This document shows, one piece after another, positions 2,378 through 35,878 of a stretch of DNA of 64,000 nt. Under the pieces are notes generated by a model. The model was not told the origin of the DNA. It did no database searches and saw only the letters and a list, made by a program, of their open reading frames with translations. Position numbers and translations under genes: made by a program. Source of the DNA: Bacteroidales bacterium (lineage in GTDB: Bacteria; Bacteroidota; Bacteroidia; Bacteroidales; UBA1715). Location: contig JAQICB010000151.1 in the NCBI GenBank assembly GCA_027858745.1, positions 10,925 to 74,924 on the forward strand, written 5' to 3'. The number at the start of each line of letters is the position of its first letter. Positions within the stretch are counted from its first letter, which is position 1.

Positions 2378-2557
2378 AACATGAGTTCGACGTAATTTTT
2401 CGAGTTCAGATTAGCTCCGCTGAGCTCGTCCTTTGTCCTCGGTTGATATAAAAAAGCTGTTTATCAAGGCAAATTATTGAATAATAGCGAGCTATTGTGA
2501 AATAATTTAACGCAGTAAAACTGTTTTTTTATGCAAAGCATACTTTTTCCGCTTATA
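2378..2557 (+). repeat. Modular intergenic repeat, copy 1 (modules A-B-C-D)
   Basis: The stretch gagttcgacgtaatttttcgagttcagattagctccgctgagctcgtcctttgtcctcggttgatataaaaaagctgttt is identical to 19431-19510. It also recurs inverted at 13596-13732 with 2 substitutions. Lies in the folE/ompA-like divergent intergenic region. Confidence 0.85.
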
Positions 2558-2649
2558 TATGTGAAATGTTAGTATCTTTTTGAAAATTGCTTTTTTTCTA
2601 TATAAAAAAAACTGCGATTCACAGTACATTTGTAAAAAACTAAAGCAAT

Positions 2650-3645
2650 ATGAAACGGATTATTTTTATTTTTATAGCAGCTCTTGTATTAAGTTCTTGT
2701 GTTTCACAAAAGAAATTTCAAACTCTTCAAGACAGTAGTCAATTAACGCAAGACTCCTTGCGAACAGCACTCGGGCATATTCAAAAAGAAATTTTTGATT
2801 TGCAACAACGTAACGACCGTCTCAATAAAGATTTGTTGACATTACGTGCTGATACCACTTCTAAAAATAGACAGATTCAAAACCTTCTTTTGCAGGTACA
2901 AGATTTAGAGGAGCTTAACAATAATTTGGTAACTAAGCAATCTCGTTTGATGCAACAAAATGCTCAAGAAAGTAGAAAAATTCTCGAAGAAATTCAATTT
3001 GCACGGCGTAATTTGCAAAAGCAACAAGATGCTTTAGATTCTGTTCGTATTCAATTGGATGAAGAACGAAAAAATCTTGATTTAATTCGCAATGAATTGG
3101 GAATTAAAAATGATGAGATTTTAACTAAAAATAAAAAAATTGCGGAAATGGAGGAAATGATTCGTCGTAAAGATTCTATTTCTAATGCTTTGCGTATGAA
3201 GGTGAAACAAGCTCTTGTCGGTTTCGAAGGGCAAGGTCTTTCCATAGAAGAACGAAATGGTAAAATATATGTCTTACTTGACGAAGCTCTCTTGTTTAAT
3301 GTAGGAAAAAGTGATGTGGCTTCTAAAGGACAAGAAGCTTTACGAAAATTAGCCGAAGTGTTGGCCCAAAATCCGGATATTGACATTATGGTTGAAGGAC
3401 ATACCGATAATACCGGCGGTTCGAAACGTAACTGGGAATTGAGTGCCGAACGCGCACTTGCTATTTCGCAAATATTATTGCAAAATACCTCTATTGAAGG
3501 TTCCCGAATTACTGTGGCCGGACGAGGACAATATATGCCCGTTGATACAGCCAATACCTCTGAGGCTCGTTCAAAAAACAGAAGAAGCGAAATAATTCTC
3601 ACTCCCGATTTGGAAGAATTGTACAATTTGATTCACGAAAATTAA
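2650..3645 (+). CDS. OmpA-family lipoprotein with long coiled-coil
   Basis: 331 aa. Lipobox LVLSSC. Q/L/E/K-rich coiled-coil from about aa 30-190. C-terminal OmpA/MotB peptidoglycan-binding domain (GHTDNTG, NWELSAERA, NRRSEI). Confidence 0.85.
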   Translation: MKRIIFIFIAALVLSSCVSQKKFQTLQDSSQLTQDSLRTALGHIQKEIFDLQQRNDRLNKDLLTLRADTTSKNRQIQNLLLQVQDLEELNNNLVTKQSRLMQQNAQESRKILEEIQFARRNLQKQQDALDSVRIQLDEERKNLDLIRNELGIKNDEILTKNKKIAEMEEMIRRKDSISNALRMKVKQALVGFEGQGLSIEERNGKIYVLLDEALLFNVGKSDVASKGQEALRKLAEVLAQNPDIDIMVEGHTDNTGGSKRNWELSAERALAISQILLQNTSIEGSRITVAGRGQYMPVDTANTSEARSKNRRSEIILTPDLEELYNLIHEN

Positions 3646-3740
3646 TCTGTTTTCGGGTATTGCATTCTTTTCGAATACTACCCTAAATGATTTATATTTC
3701 TGTGTCGTAGAGTTGTGACATGGTGTGTCTGCATATTTCA

Positions 3741-3774
3741 ATCTGAACTCGAAAAATTACGTCGAACTCAGGTT
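3741..3774 (-). repeat. Modular intergenic repeat, copy 2 (module A only, inverted)
   Basis: atctgaactcgaaaaattacgtcgaactcaggtt is the exact reverse complement of module A as seen at 13699-13732 and 19426-19459 (1-2 mismatches). It abuts the polA stop codon. Confidence 0.75.
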
Positions 3775-6560
3775 TAATGTGCTTCCAACCAATTTGCCCC
3801 AACTCCCATTTCAATTGATAACGGAACTGATAATTTTATCACGTTTTGCATACCATCTTTAATGATTTTTTTCATGCTTTCGAGTTCGTCGTGTGTAACA
3901 TCAAAATTTAACTCATCATGAACTTGCATTATAAGTTTGCTCTGCATATTTTGTTCACGCATTGTACGATAAATATCAATCATGGCTTTTTTCATAATAT
4001 CGGCAGCAGTTCCTTGTATTGGAGCATTTATGGCATTTCGTTCGGCAAAACCACGAACAGTTGCATTCTGTGAATGAATATCAGGCAAATATCGACGACG
4101 TCCAAACATTGTTTCAACATATCCGCGTTCTTGTGCTTTTCGGATTTGCGTATCCATAAATTCTTTCACCTTCGGATAACTTTCAAAATAACTGTCAATT
4201 AACGCTTGGGCTTCTTTTCGAGGAATCGACAAGGTTTGCGATAAACCAAATGCAGTTGTTCCATATGCTATCGCAAAATTAGCCGATTTAGCCTGACGGC
4301 GTTGTTCTGAACTTACCTCTTCGGGTGAAACTTTGAAAATTTTTGCTGCGGTGGCTGTATGAATATCTTCTTCATTGGTAAACGCTTCAATAAAATGAGG
4401 GTCGCCACTCATGTGAGCTATAACGCGCAATTCAATTTGAGAATAATCAGCAGACACAAATACATGCTCAGAATCTGAGGGTACAAAAGCTTTTCGAATT
4501 TCACGACCTTTTTCTGTTTTAATCGGAATGTTTTGCAAATTCGGATTTGTTGAACTGAGTCGTCCGGTTGCTACAATTGCTTGATTAAAAGATGTATGTA
4601 TTTTATGTGTTTTCGGGTGAACTAATTTTGGGAGTGCATCGACATAGGTAGTTACCAATTTTTTAAGTTCACGATAATCTAAAATTAATTCTACTATCGG
4701 ATGGGTGTCAATCAGTTTTTGTAAGACGTCCTCCCCGGTGGCATATTGTTTTGTTTTGGTTTTTTTTGCTTTCTCAACAATTACCATTTTATCAAACAAA
4801 ATAGTTCCTAATTGTTTGGGTGAATCGATATTGAATTCTTCTCCTGCGTGGTCAAAAATCTGTTGTTGAATTTCTAAAATTGCTTCTTTGAGAGATGAAG
4901 AGAGTGTGTGTAATGCCTCGCTGTCAATCGACACGCCGATTCGTTCCATGTCAGACAAGACCGGAACAAGGGGTACTTCAATATTTTTGAACAAATCTAA
5001 CTGATTTTTTTCTTTCAATTCCTTATGCAAAATAGAATAAAGTTGGAAAGTGATATCAGCATCTTCGCAGGCGTATTCTTTTGCTAATTCAATGGGAACC
5101 GTGCGAAATGAAGCTTGTGCCACGCCCTTCTTTCCAATTAGTTCCTCAATATGCACCATTTCATATTCTAAATATTGTTGCGCAAGAGAATCTAACTTAT
5201 GTCGTCCGTCGGGTTGTATAATATAATGAGCCAGCAAGGTGTCGAACAATGTGCCCGAAACCTGAATTCCGTAATTCGCTAACACCGATATGTCATATTT
5301 TACATTTTGCCCTATTTTACAAGCTTTGGACGAAAATACCGGCTGAAGAGAGTCTGCAACTTTTTGTGCCTCGTCTTGATTTTCGGGAAACGGCACATAA
5401 TATGCTTTGTGAGCTTCCCAACTAAACGAAATGCCACACAATTCCGCATCAATTATTGATAAAGAGGTGGTTTCTGTATCAAAACAAAAAGCATCGAGTT
5501 GCGACAATTTTTGGACTAAATCTTTTAATAAAGAGGGTGTGTCAACCAAATAGTAACTGTGAGGTGTGTCTTTAATTCTTTTGTATAAAGATTGAAATTC
5601 TCCCTGAATACTATCGTTGTTACCAAATAAATCTAACTGTTGAGTGTGTGCCGCTTGCTGCTTTTTTTGTGGGGTCGGTTCAACCGGAGCAAATAGTCGC
5701 TGGGCAATATTATTAAACTCAAGTTCTTTAAATTTTTCTAAAAGAATTCCTTGATTATATTCTTCTCGGCTAAAATTATAACTCGAAAATGTAATAGGAA
5801 CATTTACATCAATGGTAACAAGTTTTTTAGATAAAAGGACTTGTTCTTTATGTTCTATCAATTTTTCTTTTTGCTTACCAGTAAGATCATCGATATGTTC
5901 GTACAGACCTTCGATGGAACCGTATTCTGAAATTAATTTTTTTGAGGTTTTTTCGCCAATACCGGGAGCTCCGGGAACGTTATCTGAGCTATCGCCCCAC
6001 AATCCTAAAATGTCAATAACCTGTTCTGTGTTTTCAACACCGAATTTTTCTAAAACTTCGGGAATACCCAAAATTTCGATGCCTTTTCCAAAACTTCGGG
6101 GACGATACATGTAAATATGTTCATCAACAAGCTGGCAATAGTCTTTGTCGGGAGTAGCCATATACACGGTGAAGCCCTCTTGAGCTGCTTGTTTTGCCAA
6201 TGTTCCAATTACATCATCAGCTTCGAACCCCTCTACTTGAATAACCGGAATATTAAAACCTTGAATAATCTCAATTAAATGAGGAATTGAAGCTTTTAAG
6301 TCTTCGGGCGTTTCTTGCCGATTTGCCTTATATTCAGCATACATATCGTTTCTGAATGTAGGTCCCTGTGGGTCAAATACAACACCAATGTGACTTGGAT
6401 TCTGAATGCGCAACAATTCCAACAGTGTATTTGTGAATCCAAAAATTCCCGAAGTGTTCACTCCGGTAGCACTAATTCGTGGGTTTTTTATAAAAGCAAA
6501 ATATGAACGGTACAGCATTGCATGACCGTCTATTAAAAATATTTTTTTTTCTTCAGACAT
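3774..6560 (-). CDS. polA: DNA polymerase I
   Basis: 5'-3' exonuclease N-terminus (LIDGHAMLYRSYFA), 3'-5' exonuclease domain and family A polymerase motifs (DYSQIELR, QVHDEL). ATG at 6560 (MSEEKKIFLIDG) is preferred over the ORF-track start at 6587. Confidence 0.95.
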   Translation of the reverse strand: MSEEKKIFLIDGHAMLYRSYFAFIKNPRISATGVNTSGIFGFTNTLLELLRIQNPSHIGVVFDPQGPTFRNDMYAEYKANRQETPEDLKASIPHLIEIIQGFNIPVIQVEGFEADDVIGTLAKQAAQEGFTVYMATPDKDYCQLVDEHIYMYRPRSFGKGIEILGIPEVLEKFGVENTEQVIDILGLWGDSSDNVPGAPGIGEKTSKKLISEYGSIEGLYEHIDDLTGKQKEKLIEHKEQVLLSKKLVTIDVNVPITFSSYNFSREEYNQGILLEKFKELEFNNIAQRLFAPVEPTPQKKQQAAHTQQLDLFGNNDSIQGEFQSLYKRIKDTPHSYYLVDTPSLLKDLVQKLSQLDAFCFDTETTSLSIIDAELCGISFSWEAHKAYYVPFPENQDEAQKVADSLQPVFSSKACKIGQNVKYDISVLANYGIQVSGTLFDTLLAHYIIQPDGRHKLDSLAQQYLEYEMVHIEELIGKKGVAQASFRTVPIELAKEYACEDADITFQLYSILHKELKEKNQLDLFKNIEVPLVPVLSDMERIGVSIDSEALHTLSSSLKEAILEIQQQIFDHAGEEFNIDSPKQLGTILFDKMVIVEKAKKTKTKQYATGEDVLQKLIDTHPIVELILDYRELKKLVTTYVDALPKLVHPKTHKIHTSFNQAIVATGRLSSTNPNLQNIPIKTEKGREIRKAFVPSDSEHVFVSADYSQIELRVIAHMSGDPHFIEAFTNEEDIHTATAAKIFKVSPEEVSSEQRRQAKSANFAIAYGTTAFGLSQTLSIPRKEAQALIDSYFESYPKVKEFMDTQIRKAQERGYVETMFGRRRYLPDIHSQNATVRGFAERNAINAPIQGTAADIMKKAMIDIYRTMREQNMQSKLIMQVHDELNFDVTHDELESMKKIIKDGMQNVIKLSVPLSIEMGVGANWLEAH

Positions 6561-6673
6561 AGAGTTTCGTTTTTTACAAAGATACATTTTTCTTCACTAA
6601 ATAATGAGACTCCATTCAAGCTAATTTCCTTCCTCTTTGAGATTACCAGTAAATATTAAGTGTATTGAAATAT

Positions 6674-6737
6674 TTTTTCGAGTTCAGATTAGCTCCGCTG
6701 AGCTCGTCCTTTGTCCTCGGTTGATATAAAAAGCTGT
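6674..6737 (+). repeat. Modular intergenic repeat, copy 3 (3' half of A plus B)
   Basis: tttttcgagttcagattagctccgctgagctcgtcctttgtcctcggttgatataaaaagctgt is near-identical to the copy 1 and copy 6 core. Lies in the polA/sugar-transferase divergent intergenic region. Confidence 0.8.
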
Positions 6738-6859
6738 ATTCACAGGACGTGAGTTGTAAAAATTGTTCATTTTTATATGAAAAATTATTCAGTATAGTTA
6801 TTTTTCGATTTTAAACTGATTTTTTTTTTAACTTTGTGTTTTCTGTATACAAACAAAAA

Positions 6860-8257
6860 ATGAAAAATCGGAGATATTCAAATTACATAAAACCTTTATT
6901 TGTAATAAGTGACATAATATGTATTTTCATTGCATATGTGTCTTCCTATTTCTTTCGATTTAACTCAATTCTCGATTTATATACTAGTGTGCAAGAACAG
7001 GTATTGTTTGTGTTTTCAATAATTTTTTGGGTGTTTTTGGCTAAAAAATATAATGCATATCAACTGATTCGTATTTCAGTTAAATTAAATATTATCACTC
7101 GAACCATAAAGTTGATATTATTCCATGCATTGTTACTATTTGCCTTGCTGATTATATTAAAATACGATCAATTTTCTCGATTACAATTAGCGTATTTTTA
7201 TCTTAATCTTTTTGTGTTATTACTTTCTTCTCGCATTCTCAGTGTTTTATTGTTAGAACATATGCGAGCCAGCGGTGTTAATTATCGTACGGTGGCGATT
7301 GTTGGGATGAATACTGCCGGACGTGCAATATATTCGTATCTGCAAAAAGATTTATCGCTCGGGTATAAAATTATCGGTTATTTTGATGACAATTCTCATG
7401 ATGATATTCAAATTCCTGTATTAGGGAAATTGGAAGATGTTGCTTCGTATATTCGTGAACATAATATAGACGAATTATACATTTCGTCGCTTGAATATGA
7501 TTCGCAGAGTATTAAACAAATAATTGAAGAATGTGAAACTCGTTTAACTCGCATAAAAATCATTCCGGCTTTTCAGAAATACACCTTAAATCGTCGGGTT
7601 AATGTTGATTTTTATGGAAATATTCCGGTTATTTTTTTGCGAAAAGAACCTTTGGAAAATAGCATTAATCGATTTATTAAACGAGTGTTTGATGTGCTTT
7701 TTTCGCTTCTGTTTTTCGTATGCATTGCTCCGTGGCTATTTCCTATTCTTATTGTCTTCGTCAAAATAAGTTCACGAGGATCGGTGTTTTTTGTGCAACA
7801 ACGCTCGGGAGAAAACAATAAGCCATTTAAGTGTTATAAGTTTCGAACTATGCAAGTTAATGAAACTGCAGATGTTGAGCAAGCCACAAAAAATGATGTG
7901 CGTATTACCAAAATAGGGAAATGTTTGCGAAAACTTAATTTAGATGAATTGCCGCAATTTTATAATGTCTTGCGTGGAGATATGTCGGTTGTGGGGCCGC
8001 GTCCGCATATGTTGAAGCATACAGAGCAATATTCTGCACGGATAAAGAATTATTTGGTTCGTCATTTTATTAAACCCGGACTCACGGGTTGGGCTCAGGT
8101 TAACGGCTATCGTGGCGAAATCAAAACCGATGAGGCTATGCAAAATAGAGTAGAACATGATATTTGGTATATCGAAAATTGGTCTTTTGGCTTAGATGCA
8201 CGCATTGTTATTAAAACAATAGTTAATGTGTTTAAGGGAGATGAGAACGCTGCCTAA
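6860..8257 (+). CDS. Polyprenyl-phosphate sugar-1-phosphate transferase (WbaP/EpsB-type initiating transferase)
   Basis: N-terminal TM helices, a central Rossmann-like linker and a C-terminal bacterial sugar transferase domain (KRVFD, DELPQFYNVLRGDMSVVGPRP, GLTGWAQVNG). ATG at 6860 is preferred over GTG at 6836. Confidence 0.85.
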   Translation: MKNRRYSNYIKPLFVISDIICIFIAYVSSYFFRFNSILDLYTSVQEQVLFVFSIIFWVFLAKKYNAYQLIRISVKLNIITRTIKLILFHALLLFALLIILKYDQFSRLQLAYFYLNLFVLLLSSRILSVLLLEHMRASGVNYRTVAIVGMNTAGRAIYSYLQKDLSLGYKIIGYFDDNSHDDIQIPVLGKLEDVASYIREHNIDELYISSLEYDSQSIKQIIEECETRLTRIKIIPAFQKYTLNRRVNVDFYGNIPVIFLRKEPLENSINRFIKRVFDVLFSLLFFVCIAPWLFPILIVFVKISSRGSVFFVQQRSGENNKPFKCYKFRTMQVNETADVEQATKNDVRITKIGKCLRKLNLDELPQFYNVLRGDMSVVGPRPHMLKHTEQYSARIKNYLVRHFIKPGLTGWAQVNGYRGEIKTDEAMQNRVEHDIWYIENWSFGLDARIVIKTIVNVFKGDENAA

Positions 8258-8264
8258 ACTTTCG

Positions 8265-8322
8265 ATTGAACCTCACTATTTATAAGCGTTCTGAACCTAA
8301 AAAATTATATCGAACTGAGGTT
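8265..8322 (-). repeat. Diverged repeat, copy 4 (module E plus diverged module A')
   Basis: 58 bp with 54/58 identity to 19601-19658. Its 3' part, ctgaacctaaaaaattatatcgaactgaggtt, is a diverged inverted module A. Confidence 0.65.
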
Positions 8323-8429
8323 ATTATTTAACCTCTAACCGAGTTTTGAAAAATATCGACATCTCTTTTTTCTAAAAGTCAATTTAAAATCAATCTTAAT
8401 GCATTAACGCAGTAAGCCTTATTTTTTAA

Positions 8430-9017
8430 TTATTCACTAAGCTGAATAATTTCTTGTTTTTCGGTATCTAAGACATATGTGTGATTGCTTTCGGGACATG
8501 TGGCTTTGTTGTGTTCGTCGAAATGAAGTGTGTGTCCGTATTCACTTACCCAACCGATTTGTTTGCCGGGATTTCCAACAATTAATGCATATGGTTTAAT
8601 GTTTTTGGTGACAACAGATCCGGCTCCTATAAGTGCATATGAGCCAATTGTAATGCCGCACACAATAGTTGCATTTGCACCAATACTTGCACCTTTTTTA
8701 ACAATTGTTTCTACATATTCTGATTTCCGTACAATGGCACTGCGTGGGTTCAAAATATTGGTGAATACCATCGATGGTCCTAAAAACACATCGTTTTCGC
8801 ACACCACTCCGGTGTAGATTGAAACATTGTTTTGTACTTTCACATTGTTTCCTAATGTTACCTGCGGCGAAACAACCACATTTTGTCCAATATTACAGTT
8901 CTCACCAATAGTGCAGTGAGACATTATATGAGAAAAATGCCAAATTTTTGTATTGATGCCAATACCACAATCCTTATCAATAATGGCTGTTTCGTGTGCA
9001 AAAAAATTAGTATTCAT
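8430..9017 (-). CDS. Left-handed beta-helix N-acetyltransferase (WbpD/WlbB-like amino-sugar acetyltransferase)
   Basis: 195 aa of hexapeptide repeats. The FAHETAIID start, WHFSHI and GPSMVFTN..NPRS pattern, and the QIGWVSEYG tail match my recollection of WbpD/WlbB. It sits next to a DegT-family aminotransferase. Confidence 0.75.
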   Translation of the reverse strand: MNTNFFAHETAIIDKDCGIGINTKIWHFSHIMSHCTIGENCNIGQNVVVSPQVTLGNNVKVQNNVSIYTGVVCENDVFLGPSMVFTNILNPRSAIVRKSEYVETIVKKGASIGANATIVCGITIGSYALIGAGSVVTKNIKPYALIVGNPGKQIGWVSEYGHTLHFDEHNKATCPESNHTYVLDTEKQEIIQLSE

Positions 9018-9019
9018 AA

Positions 9020-10138
9020 TTATGCTTTATATGATGAGATAACCTGACAAATATATTCAATTTGTTCGTGGCTTAGTTCAGTATGCATTGGTAAACTGAT
9101 AACTGAACGAGATAATTGCTTAGAAACCGGACATGCTTTTGGTTTGAATTCGAGTAAAGCTTTTTGTTCATGCATCGGTACCGGATAGTAAATCATGCTT
9201 GGAATACCTTGTTCTCGTAAATATGTTTGAAAAGCAGCATTGTTCCCATCAATTTTAATGGTGTATTGATGAAAAACATGTGTTGAGTGTTCCTGAAAAA
9301 CCGGGGTTTGAATCCATGAAATTGATGACAATAATTCTGTGTATTGTGCAGCTGCCTTTTTTCGAGCTTCGTTGTATGCATCAATATGTTGGAGTTTTGT
9401 ACGCAGAATAGCAGCTTGTATCGTATCGAGACGAGAATTAATGCCAATTTGAGAATGATAATATTTTTTAAGAGAGCCATGATTTGCGAGGGCTCGAATG
9501 GTATCTGCTTTTTCGGTGTCATGGGTGAAAATAGCACCACCATCACCAAAGCACCCTAAATTTTTTGAGGGAAAAAACGAGGTGCATCCAATGTCACCGA
9601 TTGTGCCTAATTTTCTTGCTTTCCCTTTGTATACATATTCTGCACCAAAACATTGGGCGGCATCTTCAATAACATACAAATTATGCTTGTGTGCAATGCG
9701 CATAATCGTGTTCATATCTGCTGCTTGACCAAATAAATGAACCGGCATAATTGCTTTTGTTCGCGGGCTAATTGCTTCGATAATTTTTTCGCAGTCAATC
9801 GTATACGTATCCGGATTTACATCAACCAGAACCGGCACTAAACCCACACGAGCAATAGCTTCTGCTGTTGCAATAAATGTAAAATCAGAGGTTATTACTT
9901 CACTTCCGGGTTCAAGTTCGAGCGATAGCAATGCTAGCGTTAATGCATCAGTTCCATTTGCACAGGTAATAGCGTACGAACAACCTAAATACTGTTGCAG
10001 TTCCTTCTGAAACTCTTTTACATCAGAACCGTTAATAAATGCAGATTGTGAAATAACTCTCGATATAGCTGCATCAACTTCCGCTTGAATGTGTTTGTAT
10101 TGACCTTGTAGGTCAACCATTTGAATAGCAGGTTTCAT
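9020..10138 (-). CDS. DegT/DnrJ/EryC1/StrS family sugar aminotransferase
   Basis: 372 aa. Typical N-terminus (VDLQGQY...I..A...V..S..FI.G..V..FE.E), the PLP-lysine region SFFPSKNLG, and LPMH near the C-terminus. Confidence 0.9.
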   Translation of the reverse strand: MKPAIQMVDLQGQYKHIQAEVDAAISRVISQSAFINGSDVKEFQKELQQYLGCSYAITCANGTDALTLALLSLELEPGSEVITSDFTFIATAEAIARVGLVPVLVDVNPDTYTIDCEKIIEAISPRTKAIMPVHLFGQAADMNTIMRIAHKHNLYVIEDAAQCFGAEYVYKGKARKLGTIGDIGCTSFFPSKNLGCFGDGGAIFTHDTEKADTIRALANHGSLKKYYHSQIGINSRLDTIQAAILRTKLQHIDAYNEARKKAAAQYTELLSSISWIQTPVFQEHSTHVFHQYTIKIDGNNAAFQTYLREQGIPSMIYYPVPMHEQKALLEFKPKACPVSKQLSRSVISLPMHTELSHEQIEYICQVISSYKA

Positions 10139-10147
10139 GTATTCAAC

Positions 10148-10465
10148 TTATAATAATCCTAATTTTAATTTCCCCTCTTCACTTATCATTTCTTTGTCCC
10201 ATGGTGGGTCAAAGGTAAGGTCAACAAATACATTTTCAACACCTTCAATCAACATTAATCTATTTTGAATTTGATAAATAATCACATCTGTCATCGGGCA
10301 ATTTGGTGACGTTAAGGTCATTAAAATAGAAACTTCGGGTAATTTGTCGAGATTTATTTCATATATTAATCCTAAATCATAAATATTTACCGGTATTTCC
10401 GGGTCGTATATTGATGATAAGGTGGTAATTATTTCTTCTTCGAGTTGTTTTACTTCAGCAGTCAT
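10148..10465 (-). CDS. DUF59/SufT-like Fe-S cluster assembly protein
   Basis: About 105 aa. Pattern IYDPEIPVNIYDLGLIY...TLTSPNCPM is typical of the MIP18/SufT family. ATG at 10465 sits 1 nt after the upstream sufE-like stop. Confidence 0.75.
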   Translation of the reverse strand: MTAEVKQLEEEIITTLSSIYDPEIPVNIYDLGLIYEINLDKLPEVSILMTLTSPNCPMTDVIIYQIQNRLMLIEGVENVFVDLTFDPPWDKEMISEEGKLKLGLL

Positions 10466-10466
10466 A

Positions 10467-10889
10467 TCATTTGTTTTTATGATTATATGCAATTGCATAT
10501 AGTTTCATTTGTTTTATCATTGCCACCAAGCCGTTTGACCGGGTTGGCGAAAGATTTTCTTTTAAGCCGATTTCTTCTATAAAATACAAATCAGCATTCA
10601 TAACATCCTCGGGCTTTTGCTCTGAAAGTACCCGTATGAGTAGGGCAACAATTCCTTTCGTAATTACCGCATCACTATCGGCAGTGTAAATAATTACACC
10701 ATTTTTATAGTCGGCAGCTAACCATACTTGCGATTGACAGCCTTTTATGAGATATTTTTCCGTTTTGTACGCATCATCTATAATCGGCAAGTTGTTGCTT
10801 AAGTCAATAAGATACTGGTATTTGTCGAGCCAGTCGTCAAAAATTGTAAACTCTTCAATTATAGTATCTTGAATTTCGTTTATTGTCAT
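10467..10889 (-). CDS. sufE: SufE-family sulfur acceptor protein
   Basis: 140 aa. Conserved GCQSQVWL cysteine loop and typical SufE length. Confidence 0.85.
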   Translation of the reverse strand: MTINEIQDTIIEEFTIFDDWLDKYQYLIDLSNNLPIIDDAYKTEKYLIKGCQSQVWLAADYKNGVIIYTADSDAVITKGIVALLIRVLSEQKPEDVMNADLYFIEEIGLKENLSPTRSNGLVAMIKQMKLYAIAYNHKNK

Positions 10890-10996
10890 ATGTTAATTAT
10901 TTTTTGAACAAAGGTAAAAATTTATATAGGTAACATACTCTATCATTCGTACTATTTTGTCAAAAATATGTACGAAACATTACAAAAAAATCGTAC

Positions 10997-11359
10997 TTAT
11001 GATGCTTTCTGCGTTAACTGTACACTTACCGATTTCATTTTTCCACCAATTGGCGGTGCAAGTTTTGCAACTTTTATTGTTGCAGATATAAGCTGTGTAG
11101 AAAAGTGTGCAAATAACTCATCTAATATTCGTTTGCATACATGTTCTAAAAGTGCCGAAGGAATCGCCATTTCGTGTTTTATAATTTCGTATGCTGTTTG
11201 GTAATTAAGTGCGTCAGCAATAGTATCTGATTCTGCCGCATGTGAACAATCAGCTTCTAATCGTGCATTAACGGTGAAATAATTCCCTACAAGTTGCTCT
11301 GATTTAAAACAACCGTGATAGGAAAAAAACTCCATATCTTCAATTTTAATTATTCCCAT
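10997..11359 (-). CDS. folB: Dihydroneopterin aldolase
   Basis: 120 aa. The start I.I..mEFfsyHG....E...Gn.F.V and the DtI.dalNY pattern match FolB. Confidence 0.85.
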   Translation of the reverse strand: MGIIKIEDMEFFSYHGCFKSEQLVGNYFTVNARLEADCSHAAESDTIADALNYQTAYEIIKHEMAIPSALLEHVCKRILDELFAHFSTQLISATIKVAKLAPPIGGKMKSVSVQLTQKAS

Positions 11360-11472
11360 AGATTTTTTTTTGCGAAAAATAATTTTTTTTTGTCAAAAAA
11401 CAGGTAAATAGATTAATGAACTGTAAAATAAATACAAGATAATGTTATTTTTGCATAAAATATTGAAAAGTT

Positions 11473-13164
11473 ATGGCTGAAAATTCAACAGAACACAAAA
11501 AATCTCTTCACTTTATAGAACAACTTATTGAGGAAGATCTAAAAATATATCCGCATATTGTAACACGTTTTCCACCCGAACCAAATGGGTATTTGCATAT
11601 TGGACATGCAAAATCAATTTGTTTGAATTTTGGTATGGCTGAACAATATGGTGGCTATTGTAATTTGCGGTTTGATGATACCAATCCTATTCGTGAAACA
11701 ATTGAATATGTGGAAGCAATCAAGAAAGATGTTGAGTGGCTTGGTTTTGAATGGGAAAATGAATTGTATGCCTCTGAATATTTTGAACAATTGTATGAAT
11801 GGGCAGTTTTGCTTATTACAAAAGGCAAAGCATATGTATGTAATATGTCGGTTGATGAAATTGCAGAAAGTAGAGGTACGCCAACTATTCCCGGAAAAGA
11901 AAGCCCGTATAGAAATCGTTCTGTTGAAGAAAACATAGATTTATTTGCTCGTATGCGTCAAGGTGAATTTGCCGATGGCGAATGTATGTTGCGTGCTAAA
12001 ATTGATATGACTTCTCCCAATATGCATATGCGTGATCCTATTATGTATAGAATTCGCCATGCTCATCATCACCGTACCGGCGATAAGTGGTGCATCTATC
12101 CAATGTATGATTTTGCTCACGGTGAATCGGATTTTATTGAAGGTATAAGTCATTCGTTTTGTACCCTCGAATTTGAAGTTCACCGCCCTCTCTATGAGTG
12201 GTTTTTGGAGCAAATAGCAGAGCCGGGACAACGAGTTCCCAAACAGCGAGAATTTGCTCGTCTTAATTTAAATTATACCGTGATGAGCAAACGAAAACTT
12301 TTACAATTAGTAGAAGAAAAGCATGTTCAATCTTGGGATGATCCTCGTATGCCAACTATTTCAGGTTTACGTCGTCGTGGATATACTCCTGAATCTATTC
12401 GTAATTTTTCTGCAAAAGTTGGGGTTTCGAAACGCGAAAATGTGATTGACGTTGCTCTGCTTGAACATTGTGTGCGAGAAGATCTTAATGCTGCCAGTCC
12501 GCGAATTATGGCTGTACTTAATCCTTTAAAAGTGGTGTTGACAAATTATCCTGAAAATGAATCAGAATTAGTGTACGGCATTTCAAATCCGGAAGATGAA
12601 CAGTCTGAAAAACGCGCAATTCCATTTTCTCGTGAATTATATATTGAGCATACAGACTTTATGGAAGATGCTCCGAAAAAGTTTTTCCGTCTCGCTCCCG
12701 GTCGTGAAGTGCGACTCAAATATGGATATATTATAAAGTGTGAAGATGTTATAAAAGACGATGCGGGAAATATTATTGAACTCCATTGCACCTACGACCC
12801 AAAATCGAAAAGTGGAAGCGGCACCGAAGAGTCAAAACGAAAAGTAAAAGGAACGATTCATTGGGTTTCAATAGCTGATGCAATTGAAACCGAAGTGCGA
12901 TTATACGACCGATTGTTTTCTGTGGAAAATCCTTTGAATGCTGAAGATGGGAAAGATTTTCTTGAGTATATAAATCCGGATTCTTTGCAAATTACTCGTG
13001 CTTTGGTAGAACCATCAATTAAAGGGGTAGAAGTTGGATACAAATGCCAGTTTGAACGCACAGGTTATTTTTGTGTAGACCCAGATTCTACCCAAGAAAA
13101 TTTGGTGTTTAATCGAACAGTAAGCCTACGAGACGCATGGGCTAAGCAGTCGCAGAAAAAATAG
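11473..13164 (+). CDS. glnS: Glutamine--tRNA ligase
   Basis: 563 aa. Class I HIGH ([12 protein letters not shown]) and KMSKS (VMSKRKL) motifs, with GlnRS-type C-terminal beta-barrel domains. Confidence 0.95.
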
Positions 13165-13178
13165 GAGCAAAGGTTTTT

Positions 13179-13514
13179 TTATTCGTATGGTATAAAGCTG
13201 TCGGTTTTTTCGTTACGTTCATATTCTGAACCGATTTTGTGTTTAAGGTATGGAATGATTGCCGGATCTATATTTGCAATATAGTTTACTTCGAACATCA
13301 TAATATTCATATTGTTTTCCAGATACTCATCAGTTTCGTCGCCGGCTAAAAACCTCCATCCACTATCTTCGGGAGTTTCTCGTTGCTCCCGATACATAAA
13401 TTCAACTTTGCATCCGTCAACCGTTATTCTGTCCGATGCAATGCAATATCCCATAGGCGAAACTAATTCTTGAATTTTATCCGTTGGTAGTATATATCGT
13501 CCGTTATCTTTCAT
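13179..13514 (-). CDS. DUF2185-like small protein (immunity-protein-like fold family)
   Basis: About 111 aa from ATG at 13514 (the ORF-track start at 13577 is less likely). The motif YREQ...EDSGWRFLAGDETDEYL...N......N.IANIDPAIIPYL matches my recollection of the DUF2185 family. Confidence 0.55.
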   Translation of the reverse strand: MKDNGRYILPTDKIQELVSPMGYCIASDRITVDGCKVEFMYREQRETPEDSGWRFLAGDETDEYLENNMNIMMFEVNYIANIDPAIIPYLKHKIGSEYERNEKTDSFIPYE

Positions 13515-13595
13515 ATGTTTTTTTTTCAAAAATACAGTTTTTGTGTTAACAAACATACAATTGAATCCTGAATTCAATATAATTTTTCTGATTTT

Positions 13596-13732
13596 CTGCG
13601 TTAAATTATTTCACAATAGCTCGCTATTATTCAATAATTTGCCGTGATAAACAGTTTTTTATATCAACCGAGGACAAAGGACGAGCTCAGCGGAGCTAAT
13701 CTGAACTCGAAAAATTATGTCGAACTCAGGTT
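13596..13732 (-). repeat. Modular intergenic repeat, copy 5 (C-B-A, inverted)
   Basis: Reverse complement reads aacctgagttcgacataatttttcgagttcagattagctccgctgagctcgtcctttgtcctcggttgatataaaaaactgtttatcacggcaaattattgaataatagcgagctattgtgaaataatttaacgcag. This is near-identical to copy 1. Confidence 0.85.
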
Positions 13733-13893
13733 ATCATTCAAAAACAAATATTGATAATCAGTGTTTTATGTTGATTTATCTCAGTTAAAAAAGATTCCGA
13801 ACAGTAAAATTTACGGTGAACACAGCTTTGAAAAAAAAACTAAACATCTCTTCTTGTAAATACCAATAATTAGATTATTTTTGCATCATAAAC

Positions 13894-13967
13894 GGCTCCG
13901 TAGTTCAACTGAATAGAATATCAGATTTCGGCTCTGAGGGTTGCAGGTTTGAATCCTGCCGGAGTCA
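13894..13967 (+). tRNA. tRNA-Arg (anticodon TCG) with atypical elbow nucleotides
   Basis: Acceptor GGCTCCG/CGGAGTC. D arm GTTC-AACTGAATA-GAAT. Anticodon stem TCAGA/TCTGA with loop TTTCGGC. Variable region GGGTT. T arm GCAGG-TTTGAAT-CCTGC. Discriminator A. The D-loop has GA instead of GG, and the T-loop has TTT instead of TTC. Confidence 0.8.
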
Positions 13968-13971
13968 CAGA

Positions 13972-14022
13972 AACAGAGTAAGAGTAAAAGATGTATATCT
14001 AATCTCTTCTCTGTTTTTTTTT
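13972..14022 (+). terminator. Rho-independent terminator after tRNA-Arg(TCG)
   Basis: Stem aacagagtaagag / ctcttctctgtt (12 bp with one bulge), 19-nt loop, followed by a T9 run. Confidence 0.6.
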
Positions 14023-14127
14023 GTTTTTTACAGGTGTAAAAAAAGCATAAATTGTGTCGTAATCGTTCGGGATTTGTTAACTTGCTTTTGATTCGAGATT
14101 TATTAATTTTGATAAAAAAATACGATT

Positions 14128-15258
14128 GTGGATATAGCGATAAATACAAGATTTCTTATAAAAGATAAGCTCGAAGGTATAGGGAGATTTACCTTCGAAA
14201 CAATTAAACGCATGTGCGAAAATCACCCGGAACATACATTTTATTTGTTGTTCGACCGCATGTATGATACTGAGTATGTGTTTGCCCAAAATGTGAAACC
14301 GGTGATTGTGCCGTTTCAAGCTCGTCATCCCTTATTGTGGAAATTTTGGTTTCATGTGCAATTACCGCGAGTGATAAAGAAAATTAACCCAGATATTTTT
14401 ATTTCAACAGACGGTTATGTGCCAAGTGGTATTTCTATGCCGATTGTGAATGTTATTCATGACTTGAATTTTGAACATAACCCGCATCATATTCCAAGTG
14501 GAGTTTTGCGGTATTATAAAAAATATTTTCCCTTATATGCAGCTGCGTCTACGAGAATTGCAACTGTGTCTGAATTTTCGAAGCAAGATATTGCATCAAA
14601 ATATAATTTACCGACAGAAATTATTGATGTAGTTTATAATGGTATAAGCGATGGGTTTTCGCCACTTAACGAGGAACAAAAAAAATCAATAAAGCAGAAT
14701 TATGCTGATGGTAATGAATACTTTATGTATATTGGTTCCTTGCATCCGCGAAAAAATATTGCTCGCTTATTGGAGGCTTTTGAACAGTTTAAACAGGATA
14801 CCGATTCGCCTATTAAATTACTTATTGTCGGCGAAGAAATGTTTTATTCCAAAGCCATACAAAGAGCATATACGAATAATGCCTATAACCACGATGTGAT
14901 TTTTACGGGACGTGTTTCGGATACTGAATTAGCATTATTGTTAGGGGCTGCATGTGCACTCACATATGTTCCCTTGTTTGAGGGGTTTGGTATTCCTATT
15001 TTAGAGGCATTTGCTTGCGATGTGCCGGTTATTACGTCCAACTGCACATCTATGCCCGAAGTTGCCGGAGAAGCCGCATTGTTGTGCGACCCCCGAGATG
15101 TTGCCGATATTTCTCGTGCAATGAAGCGTATTACCGAAGATGATGCTCTACGAACCGAATTGGTTAATCGAGCGCGCATTCAACGAGATAAATTTTCGTG
15201 GGATAAAACAGCAGATTTGTTGTGGCAGTCGGTTATAAAAAGTTATGAGAAAAATTAG
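14128..15258 (+). CDS. Glycosyltransferase family 4 (GT-B, Glycos_transf_1)
   Basis: 376 aa. C-terminal EGFGIPILEAFACDVPVITSN motif (the E-x7-E region) typical of GT4 retaining transferases. GTG start. Confidence 0.85.
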   Translation: MDIAINTRFLIKDKLEGIGRFTFETIKRMCENHPEHTFYLLFDRMYDTEYVFAQNVKPVIVPFQARHPLLWKFWFHVQLPRVIKKINPDIFISTDGYVPSGISMPIVNVIHDLNFEHNPHHIPSGVLRYYKKYFPLYAAASTRIATVSEFSKQDIASKYNLPTEIIDVVYNGISDGFSPLNEEQKKSIKQNYADGNEYFMYIGSLHPRKNIARLLEAFEQFKQDTDSPIKLLIVGEEMFYSKAIQRAYTNNAYNHDVIFTGRVSDTELALLLGAACALTYVPLFEGFGIPILEAFACDVPVITSNCTSMPEVAGEAALLCDPRDVADISRAMKRITEDDALRTELVNRARIQRDKFSWDKTADLLWQSVIKSYEKN

Positions 15259-16417
15259 AGCTCATTATATTTTTGATGGTTTTCGGTTTCGAAAAAATGC
15301 ACAACTTGTTGTTTCTGATGATGGCGTAGTTCAAGATATATATTCTGTGCCCGAACCAATTGAGGAGGAAGCCGGTGTTGAATTTTATGCAGGGATAATC
15401 AGTCCCGGCTTTGTCAATGCACATTGTCATTTAGAACTATCGAATTTGCAGACACACATTCCGCAAAAAACCGGATTGCCCGATTTTGTTTCCTCCGTTG
15501 CTCGTTTAAAAAAAGAAATTCCTTTTTCCGAAGATGCCTGTAAAGAGACAGATGAATTAATGTGGAATAATGGTATAGTTGCCGTTGGTGATATCTCAAA
15601 TTTTTCTGATACGTTTGCACTCAAAGAGACCAGCCCTATTCAGTATCATACATTTATAGAATTATTTGATTTGCATGAAGATTCTCGTGCTGAATATGAG
15701 CGAGGAAAAAAACTCTTTAAATCATACTTACAACGAAAACACGTATCTCTTTCTCCACACGCTCCCTATTCGTGTTCACGTAAATTATGTGCAAAAATAG
15801 AAGCACATGCAGTTGATTATGAATATCCGGTAACAATACATAATCAAGAGCATGAATCGGAAAATGAAATGTTTTCGAAACATTCGGGACAATTATTTCA
15901 AGTGTTTCAGAAAGAGTTGACTCATCCAATTTTACACACGACGTATCCCTCTTCACTTCGCTTTTCTGCCGGAGCTTTTGAGCAGGTTCGCCATATGTTG
16001 TTTGTACACAATGTGTATATGTCCGAATACGATATCCGTTTTTTGCTTGAGGAACGAGGTGCTCAACATTTTACCTGTGTTGTATGTCTGTGTAGCAATA
16101 TGTATATACATGATGAATTGCCACCGCTCCCTTTGTTTTTGAAATATTCGGTGCAGTGGGCAATTGGCACCGATAGTTTAGCTTCGAATACTGATGTGTC
16201 AATGATACGCGAGATGTTGTCTCTTCAACAGGCATTTCCTGAAGTTTCGCTCAATCAATTACTTCATGCAGCTACGTATAGAGGTGCATATGCGTTAAAT
16301 CTACAGAGTCGTTTTGGTCAATTTTCGAAAGGGAAAAAACCGGGTGTTATTTTGATAGAACAGCTTGATTTACAAAATATGCGATTAACCCCGGAAACGA
16401 AGGTTCGTATGATATAA
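15245..16417 (+). CDS. Amidohydrolase-family metal-dependent hydrolase
   Basis: 390 aa. The HxH metal motif (GFVNAHCHLELS) near aa 58 and a late GTDS motif fit the amidohydrolase/chlorohydrolase-deaminase superfamily. Substrate is not assignable from sequence. Confidence 0.65.
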   Translation: MRKIRAHYIFDGFRFRKNAQLVVSDDGVVQDIYSVPEPIEEEAGVEFYAGIISPGFVNAHCHLELSNLQTHIPQKTGLPDFVSSVARLKKEIPFSEDACKETDELMWNNGIVAVGDISNFSDTFALKETSPIQYHTFIELFDLHEDSRAEYERGKKLFKSYLQRKHVSLSPHAPYSCSRKLCAKIEAHAVDYEYPVTIHNQEHESENEMFSKHSGQLFQVFQKELTHPILHTTYPSSLRFSAGAFEQVRHMLFVHNVYMSEYDIRFLLEERGAQHFTCVVCLCSNMYIHDELPPLPLFLKYSVQWAIGTDSLASNTDVSMIREMLSLQQAFPEVSLNQLLHAATYRGAYALNLQSRFGQFSKGKKPGVILIEQLDLQNMRLTPETKVRMI

Positions 16418-16866
16418 TAACAGACAGAAAGATATCCTGTTATTAACTAACAGAGTTAATTTGCTGTGCTTTCGAATCATTTCGTATCGCTTTGTGAATA
16501 ACACCGAAGATTAAAAAATAAAGTGCATTTATAATGCAACAAAAAAGTCTAATACCATGCAACTCTTTAAATATATAGAAGAATCGATTTTTTTTCGCAT
16601 GTGCGAGTAAAAAACATCTTTGTACTAGTTTTAGTATAAGAGCCTAAATATATGAGGAAAATCTGTTGAAAATAATGAACTATCAATGTTTGTTAAATTT
16701 CGTAAGCATTTTTATTCGTGTTATTGATTAATAATCAAGAGTCTCGTAATTTTTAGGAATCTCTCTTGAAAAAATCGGTTTTTACGATAATTATTGATAA
16801 TTTTGTATAGTAAAAAAACAAGATATTTTACAATAATACGAATTAACAAAATAAAAAATAATACAT

Positions 16867-17478
16867 ATGTTTTCAGGAATTATAGAAGAATTTGCAGTAG
16901 TGCAAAACATTGAACATGATAAAGAAAATGTGCATATCACATTGTCATGCAGTTTTGTAGATGAATTAGATATCGATCAAAGTATTTCTCACAATGGAGT
17001 ATGTTTAACGGTAGTAAAAAAAGATGCAACAACATATACGGTAACAGCTATTAAAGAAACCTTGCTTAAATCTAATTTAGGCGATTTGCATATTGGCGGA
17101 AAAGTTAATCTTGAACGCAGTATGCCTATGAATGGTCGCTTGGATGGGCATATTGTACAGGGGCATGTCGATCAAACGGCTGTCTGTGCCGATGTTACCG
17201 AAGCTGATGGGAGTTGGTATTATACATTCGAATATGAGCCGAGCCAAGCAGATTATATTACCGTTGAAAAAGGATCGGTTAGCGTTAACGGCGTAAGTCT
17301 TACAGTTGTGAATTCTAAACATAAGTCTTTTCAGGTTGCCATTATTCCGTACACATATGATTATACAAATTTTCATGAAATTTTACCCGGAACCAAAGTG
17401 AATTTGGAATTCGATATTATCGGAAAATATATTGCTAAATATCTTCAACTACAAGGTAACAGTGGCAATAACGAATAA
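16867..17478 (+). CDS. ribE: Riboflavin synthase
   Basis: 203 aa. MFSGIIEE start and duplicated lumazine-binding halves (GVCLTV / GVSLTV). Confidence 0.9.
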   Translation: MFSGIIEEFAVVQNIEHDKENVHITLSCSFVDELDIDQSISHNGVCLTVVKKDATTYTVTAIKETLLKSNLGDLHIGGKVNLERSMPMNGRLDGHIVQGHVDQTAVCADVTEADGSWYYTFEYEPSQADYITVEKGSVSVNGVSLTVVNSKHKSFQVAIIPYTYDYTNFHEILPGTKVNLEFDIIGKYIAKYLQLQGNSGNNE

Positions 17479-17487
17479 TTTTGTGTG

Positions 17488-18183
17488 ATGATTCGTTCAT
17501 TGTTTTCGCATATATTTCACTTGTTTTATCCTGACAATTGTGTTGTATGTGGAGGACAGTTGCGAATGAGCGAACGGGTTATGTGTTCGGCTTGTTTAAT
17601 AGATATTCCACGCATTTATTTTCATAATACGGAACGCAATCCATTGGAGGAATTGTTGTGGGGGCAAATTCCGTATGTACGAGCAAGTTCTCTATTTTAT
17701 TATTTTAAGGACAATACCTATTCTTCGCTCATATATGACTTGAAATATAAGAACAGACCCGATATTGGAGTTTTTTTAGGTGAATTATGTGCCGATGAAT
17801 TGTCTGCATCCGGTTTTTTTGAAGACATAGATTATATTGTCCCTATACCACTCCATAGAAAACGGCTTCGTAGTCGAGGATACAATCAAAGTGAAAAAAT
17901 TGCAGAAGGCTTATCTGTATATTCAGGTATACCTGTCTTACCGAAATTGATAAAACGTACTGTACATACCCAAACCCAAACGCAAAAAAACAAAGAAGAA
18001 CGGATGCGGAATGTGAGCAATATTTTTAAAGTTACCCGACCGCAGCAGGTTCATAATAAGCATATATTAGTAATAGATGACATTATTACCACTGGAGCAA
18101 CAACTATATCGTGTACGCAATCATTGATAGAAGCAGACTCCTCAATTAAGGTAAGTATCGTGTCATTGGGCTTGGCGAGGTAA
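17488..18183 (+). CDS. ComF family protein (phosphoribosyltransferase fold)
   Basis: N-terminal CxxC...CxxC zinc-finger (CVVCGG...CSAC) and a C-terminal PRTase motif ILVIDDIITTGATT. The ORF-track start is the adjacent GTG at 17485. Confidence 0.8.
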   Translation: MIRSLFSHIFHLFYPDNCVVCGGQLRMSERVMCSACLIDIPRIYFHNTERNPLEELLWGQIPYVRASSLFYYFKDNTYSSLIYDLKYKNRPDIGVFLGELCADELSASGFFEDIDYIVPIPLHRKRLRSRGYNQSEKIAEGLSVYSGIPVLPKLIKRTVHTQTQTQKNKEERMRNVSNIFKVTRPQQVHNKHILVIDDIITTGATTISCTQSLIEADSSIKVSIVSLGLAR

Positions 18184-18184
18184 A

Positions 18185-18220
18185 TAAAAAAAGCCCACTT
18201 AAAAATAAGCAGGCTTTTTA
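18185..18220. terminator. Putative bidirectional terminator between comF-like and gap
   Basis: A-run, then an imperfect stem agcccactt / aagcaggct (7 of 9 pairs) with a 6-nt loop, then a T-run. Lies between convergent genes. Confidence 0.45.
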
Positions 18221-18243
18221 TAAAATGATATAAATAAATTCAA

Positions 18244-19275
<1,032 letters not shown>

Positions 19276-19295
19276 TTAAACTTTTTAAACGTCGA

Positions 19296-19326
19296 CAAAT
19301 TTATATAATTCTCATTAATAGCCAAA
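19296..19326 (-). promoter_or_regulatory. Candidate Bacteroidota-type promoter for gap
   Basis: The minus strand reads TTTG, then 19 nt, then TAAATTTG, which fits the TTTG / TAnnTTTG consensus and its 19-21 nt spacing. The -7 box ends 47 nt upstream of the gap ATG. Confidence 0.4.
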
Positions 19327-19425
19327 TATTTAAGTATGTAAATGTTGTACCGTCAACTAAAATTCATCAGGTATTTTTCTGATGAAATAGTGTTTTTTTT
19401 GGATAAAGGACATTAAAATAGTTAT

Positions 19426-19540
19426 AATCTGAGTTCGACGTAATTTTTCGAGTTCAGATTAGCTCCGCTGAGCTCGTCCTTTGTCCTCGGTTGATATAAA
19501 AAAGCTGTTTTTTATGCAAAGCATACTTTTTTCGCTTATA
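19426..19540 (+). repeat. Modular intergenic repeat, copy 6 (A-B-D, lacks module C)
   Basis: Identical to copy 1 across A-B, then continues directly into module D (tttatgcaaagcatacttttttcgcttata). The 64-bp module C of copy 1 is absent. Confidence 0.85.
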
Positions 19541-19600
19541 AACAGTCATCTTTAGCTCAAAAATAATTTAAAATAACCCGTTATTATTTCATTATTTTTG

Positions 19601-19658
19601 ATTGAACCGCACTATTTATAAGCGTTCTGAATCTAAAAAATTATATCGAATTCAGGTT
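19601..19658 (-). repeat. Diverged repeat, copy 7 (module E plus A')
   Basis: 54/58 identity to 8265-8322. Contains CTGAAT...ATTCAG inverted termini. Confidence 0.65.
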
Positions 19659-19690
19659 TATAATTCTAAGTTTTTTAAATTGTCTGTATA

Positions 19691-19734
19691 CAAAAATACC
19701 CGATACTCAAATGTATGTGTATCGGGTATTTTTG
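19691..19734 (-). terminator. Rho-independent terminator downstream of fumarate hydratase
   Basis: Perfect 11-bp stem atacccgatac / gtatcgggtat with a 12-nt loop, flanked by an A5 run on one side and a T5 run on the other (bidirectional shape). Confidence 0.7.
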
Positions 19735-19752
19735 TGTGTTGGGAACTAGGCT

Positions 19753-32232: not shown

Positions 32233-32238
32233 AATAGT

Positions 32239-33966: not shown

Positions 33967-33972
33967 GGTAAT

Positions 33973-34905: not shown

Positions 34906-34930
34906 AAATGATAGAAAATATGTATATGTT

Positions 34931-35538: not shown

Positions 35539-35878
35539 ATGTTTTATATTAAAAATGAGTCCGTTTTTTTTAGTGGGGTCTGGTCTCCACTATTTATAAT
35601 TGTATGACTATTAAAATTCGTATGTTGAATATATGTGTTTCTACTCACAAACATATGAGTAAAATTTTTCGAAGATATAAATTTTTTATAAAAAATCGGC
35701 AATCATAAAAAAGAATTTAAATCAACTCATCTTATCAGGGAAGATTCTGAATAGCAAAAATCACTTCGAACAAAAGGTGTTTATATCAGTTCTTTTAATT
35801 TGTAACATATTCAACCATAAAAAAAAGCTAAAAACACTGTAATTTTTATACCTTTGCCGCAAATTAAAATCATTCAGT

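Follow-up and report, generated by a model that had tools for sequence, protein, structure and literature searches.

Intergenic repeats in a Bacteroidales genome as a probable family of IS982-type miniature inverted-repeat transposable elements

Repeats of the window and their genomic context

In the 64-kb window analyzed here (the whole stretch of 64,000 nt from contig JAQICB010000151.1 of the Bacteroidales bacterium assembly GCA_027858745.1), a family of short repeats is interspersed among housekeeping-type genes: fabD, folE, an OmpA-family lipoprotein gene, polA, a sugar transferase gene and suf genes, as well as folB, glnS, an Imm33 gene, a tRNA-Arg gene, ribE, gapA and the fumarase gene. 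Every copy is intergenic, and the elements contain neither coding genes nor open reading frames (ORFs) of note. The family comprises two complete elements, four fragments and at most two eroded relics. These repeats are very probably a new family of MITEs (miniature transposable elements with inverted repeats) of a known kind, the IS982 type, which would be mobilised in trans by an IS195-like DDE transposase. The features of the window, as detected by hidden Markov models (HMMs) and repeat searches, are as follows.

19427..19657, plus strand: complete element of 231 bp (terminal-repeat HMM at both ends; full-element HMM E = 1.5e-49)
19422..19426, no strand: left copy of the target duplication, TTATA, equal to the right flank
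19658..19662, no strand: right copy of the target duplication, TTATA, equal to the left flank
13566..13731, minus strand: complete, internally deleted element of 166 bp (full-element HMM E = 7.8e-31; bounded by inverted copies of module A)
13751..13828, minus strand: possible eroded second copy, weak (HMM E = 0.061; 71% match to module A at 13794-13828)
2379..2557, plus strand: fragment, right end lost (HMM positions 2-162, E = 4e-36)
3741..3773, minus strand: solitary left-type terminal repeat (repeat search; outer end abuts the polA stop codon)
6668..6740, plus strand: fragment, outer end lost (HMM E = 2e-7)
8257..8321, plus strand: fragment consisting of the distal right arm and a right-type terminal repeat (HMM positions 215-279, E = 1.4e-16)
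35716..35778, minus strand: very weak possible relic upstream of metF, which could be chance (HMM E = 0.34; 69% match to module A)

The repeats lie at or close to the positions at which an earlier note on this DNA had described seven copies built from reusable modules, A to E, and they exceed chance by far: a 32-nt word spanning the A-B junction occurs four times in the window and never in 100 shuffles, and a degenerate 27-nt pattern of module A has six matches where none is expected in shuffles. Over 81 nt, the A-B cores at 2382-2462 and 19430-19510 are 100% identical, just as the earlier note had claimed for its first and sixth copies, and the core of the fifth, at 13655-13734, is 98% identical to both. 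It was likewise right that the flanking DNA of the copies is unrelated, that the copies are all intergenic and that they occur in both orientations. The seven sequences are real; however, they are not seven separate units, since the sixth and seventh are the two ends of the single element 19427-19657, in which the DNA between them also belongs to the family. The fifth copy had been drawn too short, missing a second, degenerate terminal repeat at 13566-13593. A possible remnant noted at 8404-8417 amounts to a 25-nt, 84% match that the element HMM does not detect.

The element 19427-19657 is situated between the terminator hairpin of fumarase and the promoter region of gapA, and is composed of a left terminal repeat, a 32-bp insertion (module B), a shortened left arm, the right arm and the right terminal repeat. 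The hairpin itself, directly downstream of fumarase at 19690-19735, consists of a perfect inverted repeat of 20 bp with a T run behind it and looks like an intrinsic terminator; the element sits just beyond it. The second complete element, 13566-13731, is located between the Imm33 gene and tRNA-Arg, and on the minus strand its order is left terminal repeat, B, left arm and degenerate right terminal repeat. The Imm33-family immunity gene (13179-13577), which adjoins this element and tRNA-Arg, stands alone, with no toxin gene beside it.

Among the fragments, 2379-2557 lies in the divergent spacer between folE and the ompA-like gene and retains the left terminal repeat, B, the full left arm and the beginning of the right arm, while 6668-6740, upstream of both polA and the sugar transferase gene, keeps 20 nt from the inner side of the left terminal repeat, together with B and the initial bases of the left arm. 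The inner break of 8257-8321 falls 0-3 nt past the stop codon of the sugar transferase gene, and the flank of the solitary repeat 3741-3773, ATTAA, includes the TAA stop of polA. The very weak possible relic 35716-35778 lies in the gap between porP/sprF and metF (34906-35878), which is unusually long (974 bp) and otherwise contains only a 105-aa ORF on the minus strand.

Two further readings of these coordinates were considered and rejected. The pairs 2379.../...3773 and 6668.../...8321 could be seen as composite units carrying the ompA-like and sugar transferase genes, respectively; this was discounted because their flanks are not duplicated, the 6668 fragment has no outer end, and a sister species (see below) carries ompA beside polA without the repeat. 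At 6747, ACGTGAGTTGTA resembles a further end; a match of this kind does not exceed chance, and it aligns to the degenerate left arm.

Architecture of the element

The full element measures approximately 260-300 bp, and module A corresponds to its terminal inverted repeat of about 35 nt. The termini read ACCTGAGTTCGA / ACGTGAGTTCGA, and the element can be defined as 5'-AC(C/G)TGAGTTCGA...TCGAACTCA(G/C)GT-3'. Each terminal repeat bears two direct GAGTTC-like motifs, 19 bp apart, and two long palindromic arms lie inside the full element. The dinucleotide AC starts all but two of the element ends examined, the exceptions being the left end at 19427 of the window, which begins with AT (ATCTG), and the degenerate end at 13566, which begins with TC. 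The right arm contains a TAnnTTTG-like box that is not kept from one lineage to another; promoters of Bacteroidota deviate from the sigma-70 type.

Eleven complete copies, namely the two of the window and nine of 140-295 bp from public genome and metagenome loci, were available for comparison. They span 140-295 bp with terminal repeats of about 35 nt at their bounds, and all eleven, 19427-19657 over its full length, align to a single master, represented by the 295-bp copy at locus L003 (L003:6964-7258), of which the shorter copies are nested internal deletions. The repeats of the window are accordingly internal-deletion or truncation derivatives of a master of approximately 260-300 bp. The modules A to E, which had been taken for reusable building blocks, are by this alignment leftovers of differing deletions and truncations; the apparent modularity arises because copies decay in these two ways, and the solitary terminal repeats may do so as well. 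Module B alone is a true insertion; in the lineage of the window it adds 32 bp immediately behind the left terminal repeat, and another lineage carries a different insertion at the same point.

Target duplications and insertion sites

A perfect 5-bp target duplication flanks seven of the eleven complete copies. The duplicated sequences are TAATA (three times), TATTA, TAAAA, TTAAA and TTATA, the last being that of the window element 19427-19657, and they give the consensus TWWWA. When the left flank of one copy was paired with the right flank of another as a control, identity was found in only 11 of 110 combinations. A logo of the flanks shows that 33 of 36 ends have T as the first duplicated base. 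A 3-bp duplication model was dropped because this near-invariant T puts the element boundary one base further in; with the boundary moved by that base, a 5-bp duplication results, which fits all seven clean cases as well as the published "AC" ends of IS982 elements. A model in which only TA is duplicated fails for L003, L015 and the window element 19427-19657, whereas the 5-bp model fits all three. The flanks of the other complete element of the window, 13566-13731, are no longer duplicated, with two of five positions matching.

Insertions often coincide with stop codons. Where an element end faces the 3' end of a gene, the duplicated target overlaps the stop codon in 7 of 17 cases (3773-3777 at polA in the window, and L001, L005, L011, L012, L015 and L030). 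The reading frame is not disturbed by the duplication, and the polA product still has its natural ...NWLEAH terminus, followed by the stop codon, despite the solitary repeat. Among 16 ends facing the start of a gene, none lies closer than 5 nt, and the median distance is about 150 nt. This pattern exceeds what target availability would produce, because TWWWA sites are abundant in intergenic DNA (TAWTA alone occurs 31 times in 3.4 kb). Its simplest reason would be purifying selection against hits on terminators and promoters.

Distribution in the window and in related genomes

Six element sites of the window fall within the first 20 kb, and there is no clear site in the other 44 kb, where the amount of intergenic DNA is similar. 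The earlier note had seen no copy beyond 20 kb, and the full-element HMM found no clear one there, its sole hit being the weak match at 35716-35771 (E = 0.34). The clustering has a probability of approximately P = 0.02 under a uniform model chosen post hoc and is thus suggestive; operon structure or local hopping could be its source. Taken at face value, the same clustering would favour an origin of the repeats within these 20 kb alone, either as local segmental duplications or as regulatory operators that the adjacent housekeeping genes share. We consider this origin highly improbable: the flanks of the copies are unrelated, the neighbouring genes share no common function, orthologous sites in a sister species are empty, and many unrelated contigs, from at least seven metagenome-assembled genomes (MAGs), carry the sequence, which refutes it. 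The earlier note had named local duplication without further copies as the outcome that would overturn its proposal of mobile DNA; with copies on many contigs and MAGs, mobility stands.

The dispersal was traced with the 27-nt end pattern. In public genomes it matches at least 15 stretches, drawn from at least seven MAGs; a single MAG contributes eight of these, each on a contig of its own. In metagenomes it matches a further eight stretches. The MAGs with matching ends are labelled Bacteroidales, Marinilabiliaceae, Prolixibacteraceae and Salinivirgaceae. A plasmid BLAST search gave no match to the element, and scans of viral contigs gave one eroded solo end only.

Presence and absence were assessed in a sister species represented by two MAGs, GCA_048616815.1 and GCA_964558075.1, whose proteins are 94% (polA) and 98% (gapA) identical to those of the window. 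At the polA stop codon the sister MAGs read CATTAA followed by unrelated DNA, and the solitary repeat is absent. The region upstream of polA lacks the 6668-6740 fragment, with the promoter-proximal 70 nt conserved. The spacer between fumarase and gapA is 239 bp in the sister species versus 504 bp in the window; the 231-bp element is absent, and the approximately 170 nt adjoining gapA are almost identical. The reciprocal case is also seen, in that a right-end fragment of the sister species (L023:1662-1696) lies at the orthologue of window positions 23695-23867, where the window itself has no copy.

Independent metagenome assemblies of the window's species end within the repeats, and two of them break inside 2379-2557. 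The breaks concern L016 (contig end 242 bp upstream of ompA), L017 (a contig of 1238 bp) and L022 (end 235 bp upstream of gapA), and are as expected because the repeats are multi-copy DNA.

Folding and covariation

RNAalifold modeling of five long copies from three lineages yielded a three-armed structure, in which the terminal repeats form an outer stem of 31 pairs and two internal hairpins contribute about 33 pairs each, with 96% of the cells of the consensus paired. Pairs changed on both sides number 28, versus 11.5 +/- 2.3 in shuffles (0 of 500 reach 28), and a control with slid partners gave two to three doubly compensated pairs. In the outer stem the sequence is conserved, 23 of the 31 pairs being invariant, as is expected of a protein-binding site; the arms vary with compensation. 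As RNA, the window element 19427-19657 folds with -64.9 kcal/mol (z = -8.0), and the master as DNA with -43.1 kcal/mol (z = -5.5). A strand asymmetry of the RNA fold is seen solely in one lineage, termed ACGTG (L008, L011, L027, L031 and L029), in which RNA of the right-to-left strand folds more stably by 2-18 kcal/mol, and with more G-U pairs, than RNA of the left-to-right strand; in the window's lineage the asymmetry is reversed or absent.

Such a fold raises the question of whether the repeats are primarily structured non-coding RNAs or RNA-level elements of 3' untranslated regions (stabilisers, terminators or processing sites) whose spread is secondary, or MITEs exapted and kept for their fold. 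The extent of pairing, the doubly compensated pairs and the fold z-score of the window element would agree with this, as would the stop-codon overlaps, which imply that many copies must be co-transcribed. We nevertheless regard it as distinctly unlikely. The Rfam covariance-model search suggested in the earlier note gave only two tRNAs at the gathering score in the window and nothing over the repeats at E <= 5; the copies occur in both orientations relative to the neighbouring genes; deletion derivatives without one or both arms persist; copies are absent from the sister species at conserved loci; the strand asymmetry is confined to one lineage; and templated repair within hairpins can also produce compensated palindromes without selection on RNA. 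The orientation of the copies, together with the many truncated ones and their absence from close relatives, likewise speaks against the regulatory sites that the earlier note had entertained.

The symmetry of the arms may reflect selection, whether acting on cruciform or single-stranded DNA or at the RNA level, or else hairpin-templated repair. Given the strong covariation, the elements may have an RNA-level role, which would then be secondary to mobility. A bolder view, which we hold to be unlikely, is that the element is more than decaying selfish DNA, either because the arms are selected as hairpins, insertion is biased to stop codons and many copies serve as transcribed 3'-end structures (e.g., mRNA stabilisers, terminators or RNase targets), or because a three-armed single-strand fold is required for transposition by an enzyme of the IS982 family.

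Family assignment and comparison with known systems

An ISfinder-based review places IS195 in the IS982 family, whose members have 5'-AC at their ends, are flanked by direct repeats that vary in length and encode a transposase of about 300 aa (PMC7335449); the direct-repeat values listed in its family table include 0, 2, 7, 8 and 9 bp, and the term MITE has no occurrence in this 2020 review (PMC7335449). In its supplementary Fig. S1, the left ends of cluster II are ACCTGAGTTCGATGAAAT... (also given as ACCTGAGTTCGAT...) for ISAlw19/20, ACGTGAGTTCGATTAG... (also given as ACGTGAGTTCGAT...) for ISCca4, ACCTGAGTTCGGGATAAG... for IS1592, IS1599 and ISNeu1, and ACGTCAGTTCGATCTAAG... (also given as ACGTCAGTTCGAT...) for IS195. 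ISPg3 is the same element as IS195 (PMC9328147), and its ends are ACGTCAGTTCGA / TCGAACTGACGT (PMC4596501, Table 2).

The first 12-13 nt of the present element are identical to those of ISAlw19/20 and ISCca4, and from this identity it is probably a MITE of the IS982 family; IS195/ISPg3 matches at 11 of 12 positions. Several cluster II members likewise have T as their ninth nucleotide and TAA across positions 15-17, and the 5'-AC ends and a short target duplication within the variable range of the family are further points in common. Unlike the cluster II insertion sequences, the elements here have no gene for the DDE transposase of about 290-330 aa that marks the family and are non-autonomous, and their terminal repeat is longer (~35 nt) and contains an internal direct repeat. 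ISPg3 differs further in its reported duplications of 4, 7 and 8 bp, as opposed to the regular 5-bp TWWWA found here.

Judged from terminal sequence, the closest described relative appears to be MITE239 of Porphyromonas gingivalis, a 239-bp element with the terminal repeat of ISPg3 (PMC2575886) and the left end ACGTGAGTTCGATATAAAGGAA (PMC4596501, Table 2). Over 17 of 17 nt, ACGTGAGTTCGATATAATTTTT, the right end found in the ACGTG lineage, equals the left terminal repeat of MITE239, ACGTGAGTTCGATATAA; the match stops after nt 17. MITE239 and MITE700, which ISPg3 (IS195) mobilises, resemble the present family in belonging to the same phylum and lacking a transposase gene, and the size of MITE239 is comparable (239 bp versus 231-295 bp here). 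Partial copies are common among the P. gingivalis MITEs, and MITE700 also varies by internal deletions and insertions. The host here, however, is an uncultured Marinilabiliales-like bacterium of the Bacteroidales rather than P. gingivalis, and the likeness concerns the ends, with the terminal repeats diverging past nt 17 (AGGAA versus TTTTT).

The enterobacterial ERIC and neisserial Correia elements are also MITEs, and they duplicate TA. They share with the present family a small size, an intergenic location often at gene 3' ends with co-transcription, imperfect palindromes, size variants by indels, long RNA hairpins and the lack of an identified transposase in the same genome. They differ in the duplicated target (TA versus 5 bp), in having a single long hairpin rather than a three-armed fold, and in their unrelated termini and host phylum.

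The intergenic, palindromic and mosaic look of the repeats, which occur both as single units and as inverted pairs with variable linkers, also recalls REP/BIME or REPIN sequences, that is, palindromic units spread by a RAYT (an IS200/IS605-type tyrosine transposase) via single-stranded DNA; REPIN hairpins, too, are conserved by compensatory change. Such an origin has a very remote likelihood, considering that REP and REPIN insertions make no target duplication whereas perfect 5-bp duplications are present here, that the termini equal those of the DDE-type IS982 elements, that the units are AT-rich and not GC-rich stem-loops, and that Pfam domain scans of the window revealed no RAYT-like gene. 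Of the "MITE/REP-like" character proposed in the earlier note, the REP-like half is consequently set aside by the duplications and the DDE-type ends. The MITE half is retained: terminal repeats surround a short core without a transposase gene, the target is duplicated, and the copies are dispersed and polymorphic, with empty sites in the sister species and termini of the IS982 type. The other outcome that the earlier note had named as refuting, a match to a known annotated element or RNA family, does apply at the family level, through these termini and MITE239; Rfam has no family matching the sequence.

Proposed transposition and points against it

For an IS982-type MITE, we hypothesize that another part of the genome encodes a DDE transposase of about 300 aa, which would bind both terminal repeats, cut an AT-rich TWWWA target with a 5-bp stagger and join the element ends to it, and that gap repair would then yield the 5-bp duplication. 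Once inserted, copies lose internal stretches or are truncated, as the alignments show. The fold may well matter either for transposition itself or for rendering co-transcription harmless.

Several observations weigh against the assignment as an IS982-type MITE. The earlier note had seen no transposase nearby, and Pfam domain scans found none encoded in the entire 64-kb window, including any gene of the IS982 family. In approximately 300 kb of compared loci, no pair of ends 0.6-3 kb apart was found around a transposase-like ORF, and no repeated ORFs were found across these loci. Four of the eleven complete copies have no perfect duplication. The published IS982 terminal-repeat consensus AC(N)6T(N)5TT is matched only in part, positions 15-16 being TA and not TT, as in IS1592, IS1599 and ISNeu1. 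Solitary left-type terminal repeats of about 35 nt recur across genomes (3741-3773 in the window; L028:645-679), followed by unrelated DNA and with no surrounding duplication, which simple transposition does not explain. Finally, the internal arms covary far beyond the expectation for junk DNA, hinting at a constraint beyond transposase binding.

Other features of the window

Several other differences and gene clusters were observed. Between ribE and an amidohydrolase gene, the sister species carries genes for an Eco47II-type restriction enzyme and a DNA methylase and a Kinase-PolyVal gene (L023:9095-11888, L024:8915-11885); at the same position, the window has only a 449-bp spacer (16418-16866). 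The region 23867-34905 of the window is a cluster of type IX secretion cargo and accessory genes, including a PorP/SprF gene. It encodes a 1465-aa protein with a Por_Secre_tail domain in its sister orthologue (L023/L024), on which the domain scan was made, and two proteins of 1130 and 575 aa with SprB repeats and CHU_C domains. At 44638-63787, a 1757-aa ORF (44638-49911) is followed from ~50 kb by a polysaccharide and sialic-acid-like biosynthesis cluster with NeuB, a CMP-sugar cytidylyltransferase, GT2 glycosyltransferases, a flippase and DUF6044; the GC content drops to 30% at 52-56 kb.

Significance

The element leaves current concepts unchanged, being an ordinary kind of selfish DNA, though an unusually well folded one, and its general interest is low, with a modest addition from the covarying fold and the stop-codon bias. 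For the Bacteroidales MAGs concerned, the repeats explain breaks in the assemblies and represent a practical cause of MAG fragmentation, and strains and species can be typed with the element as a marker. The IS982 family, which has been little studied, gains a well-defined MITE family with a clean 5-bp TWWWA target rule. The covarying three-armed fold could help in the study of end recognition by IS982-type transposases, and the stop-codon insertions, as a natural set, would lend themselves to testing effects on mRNA 3' ends.

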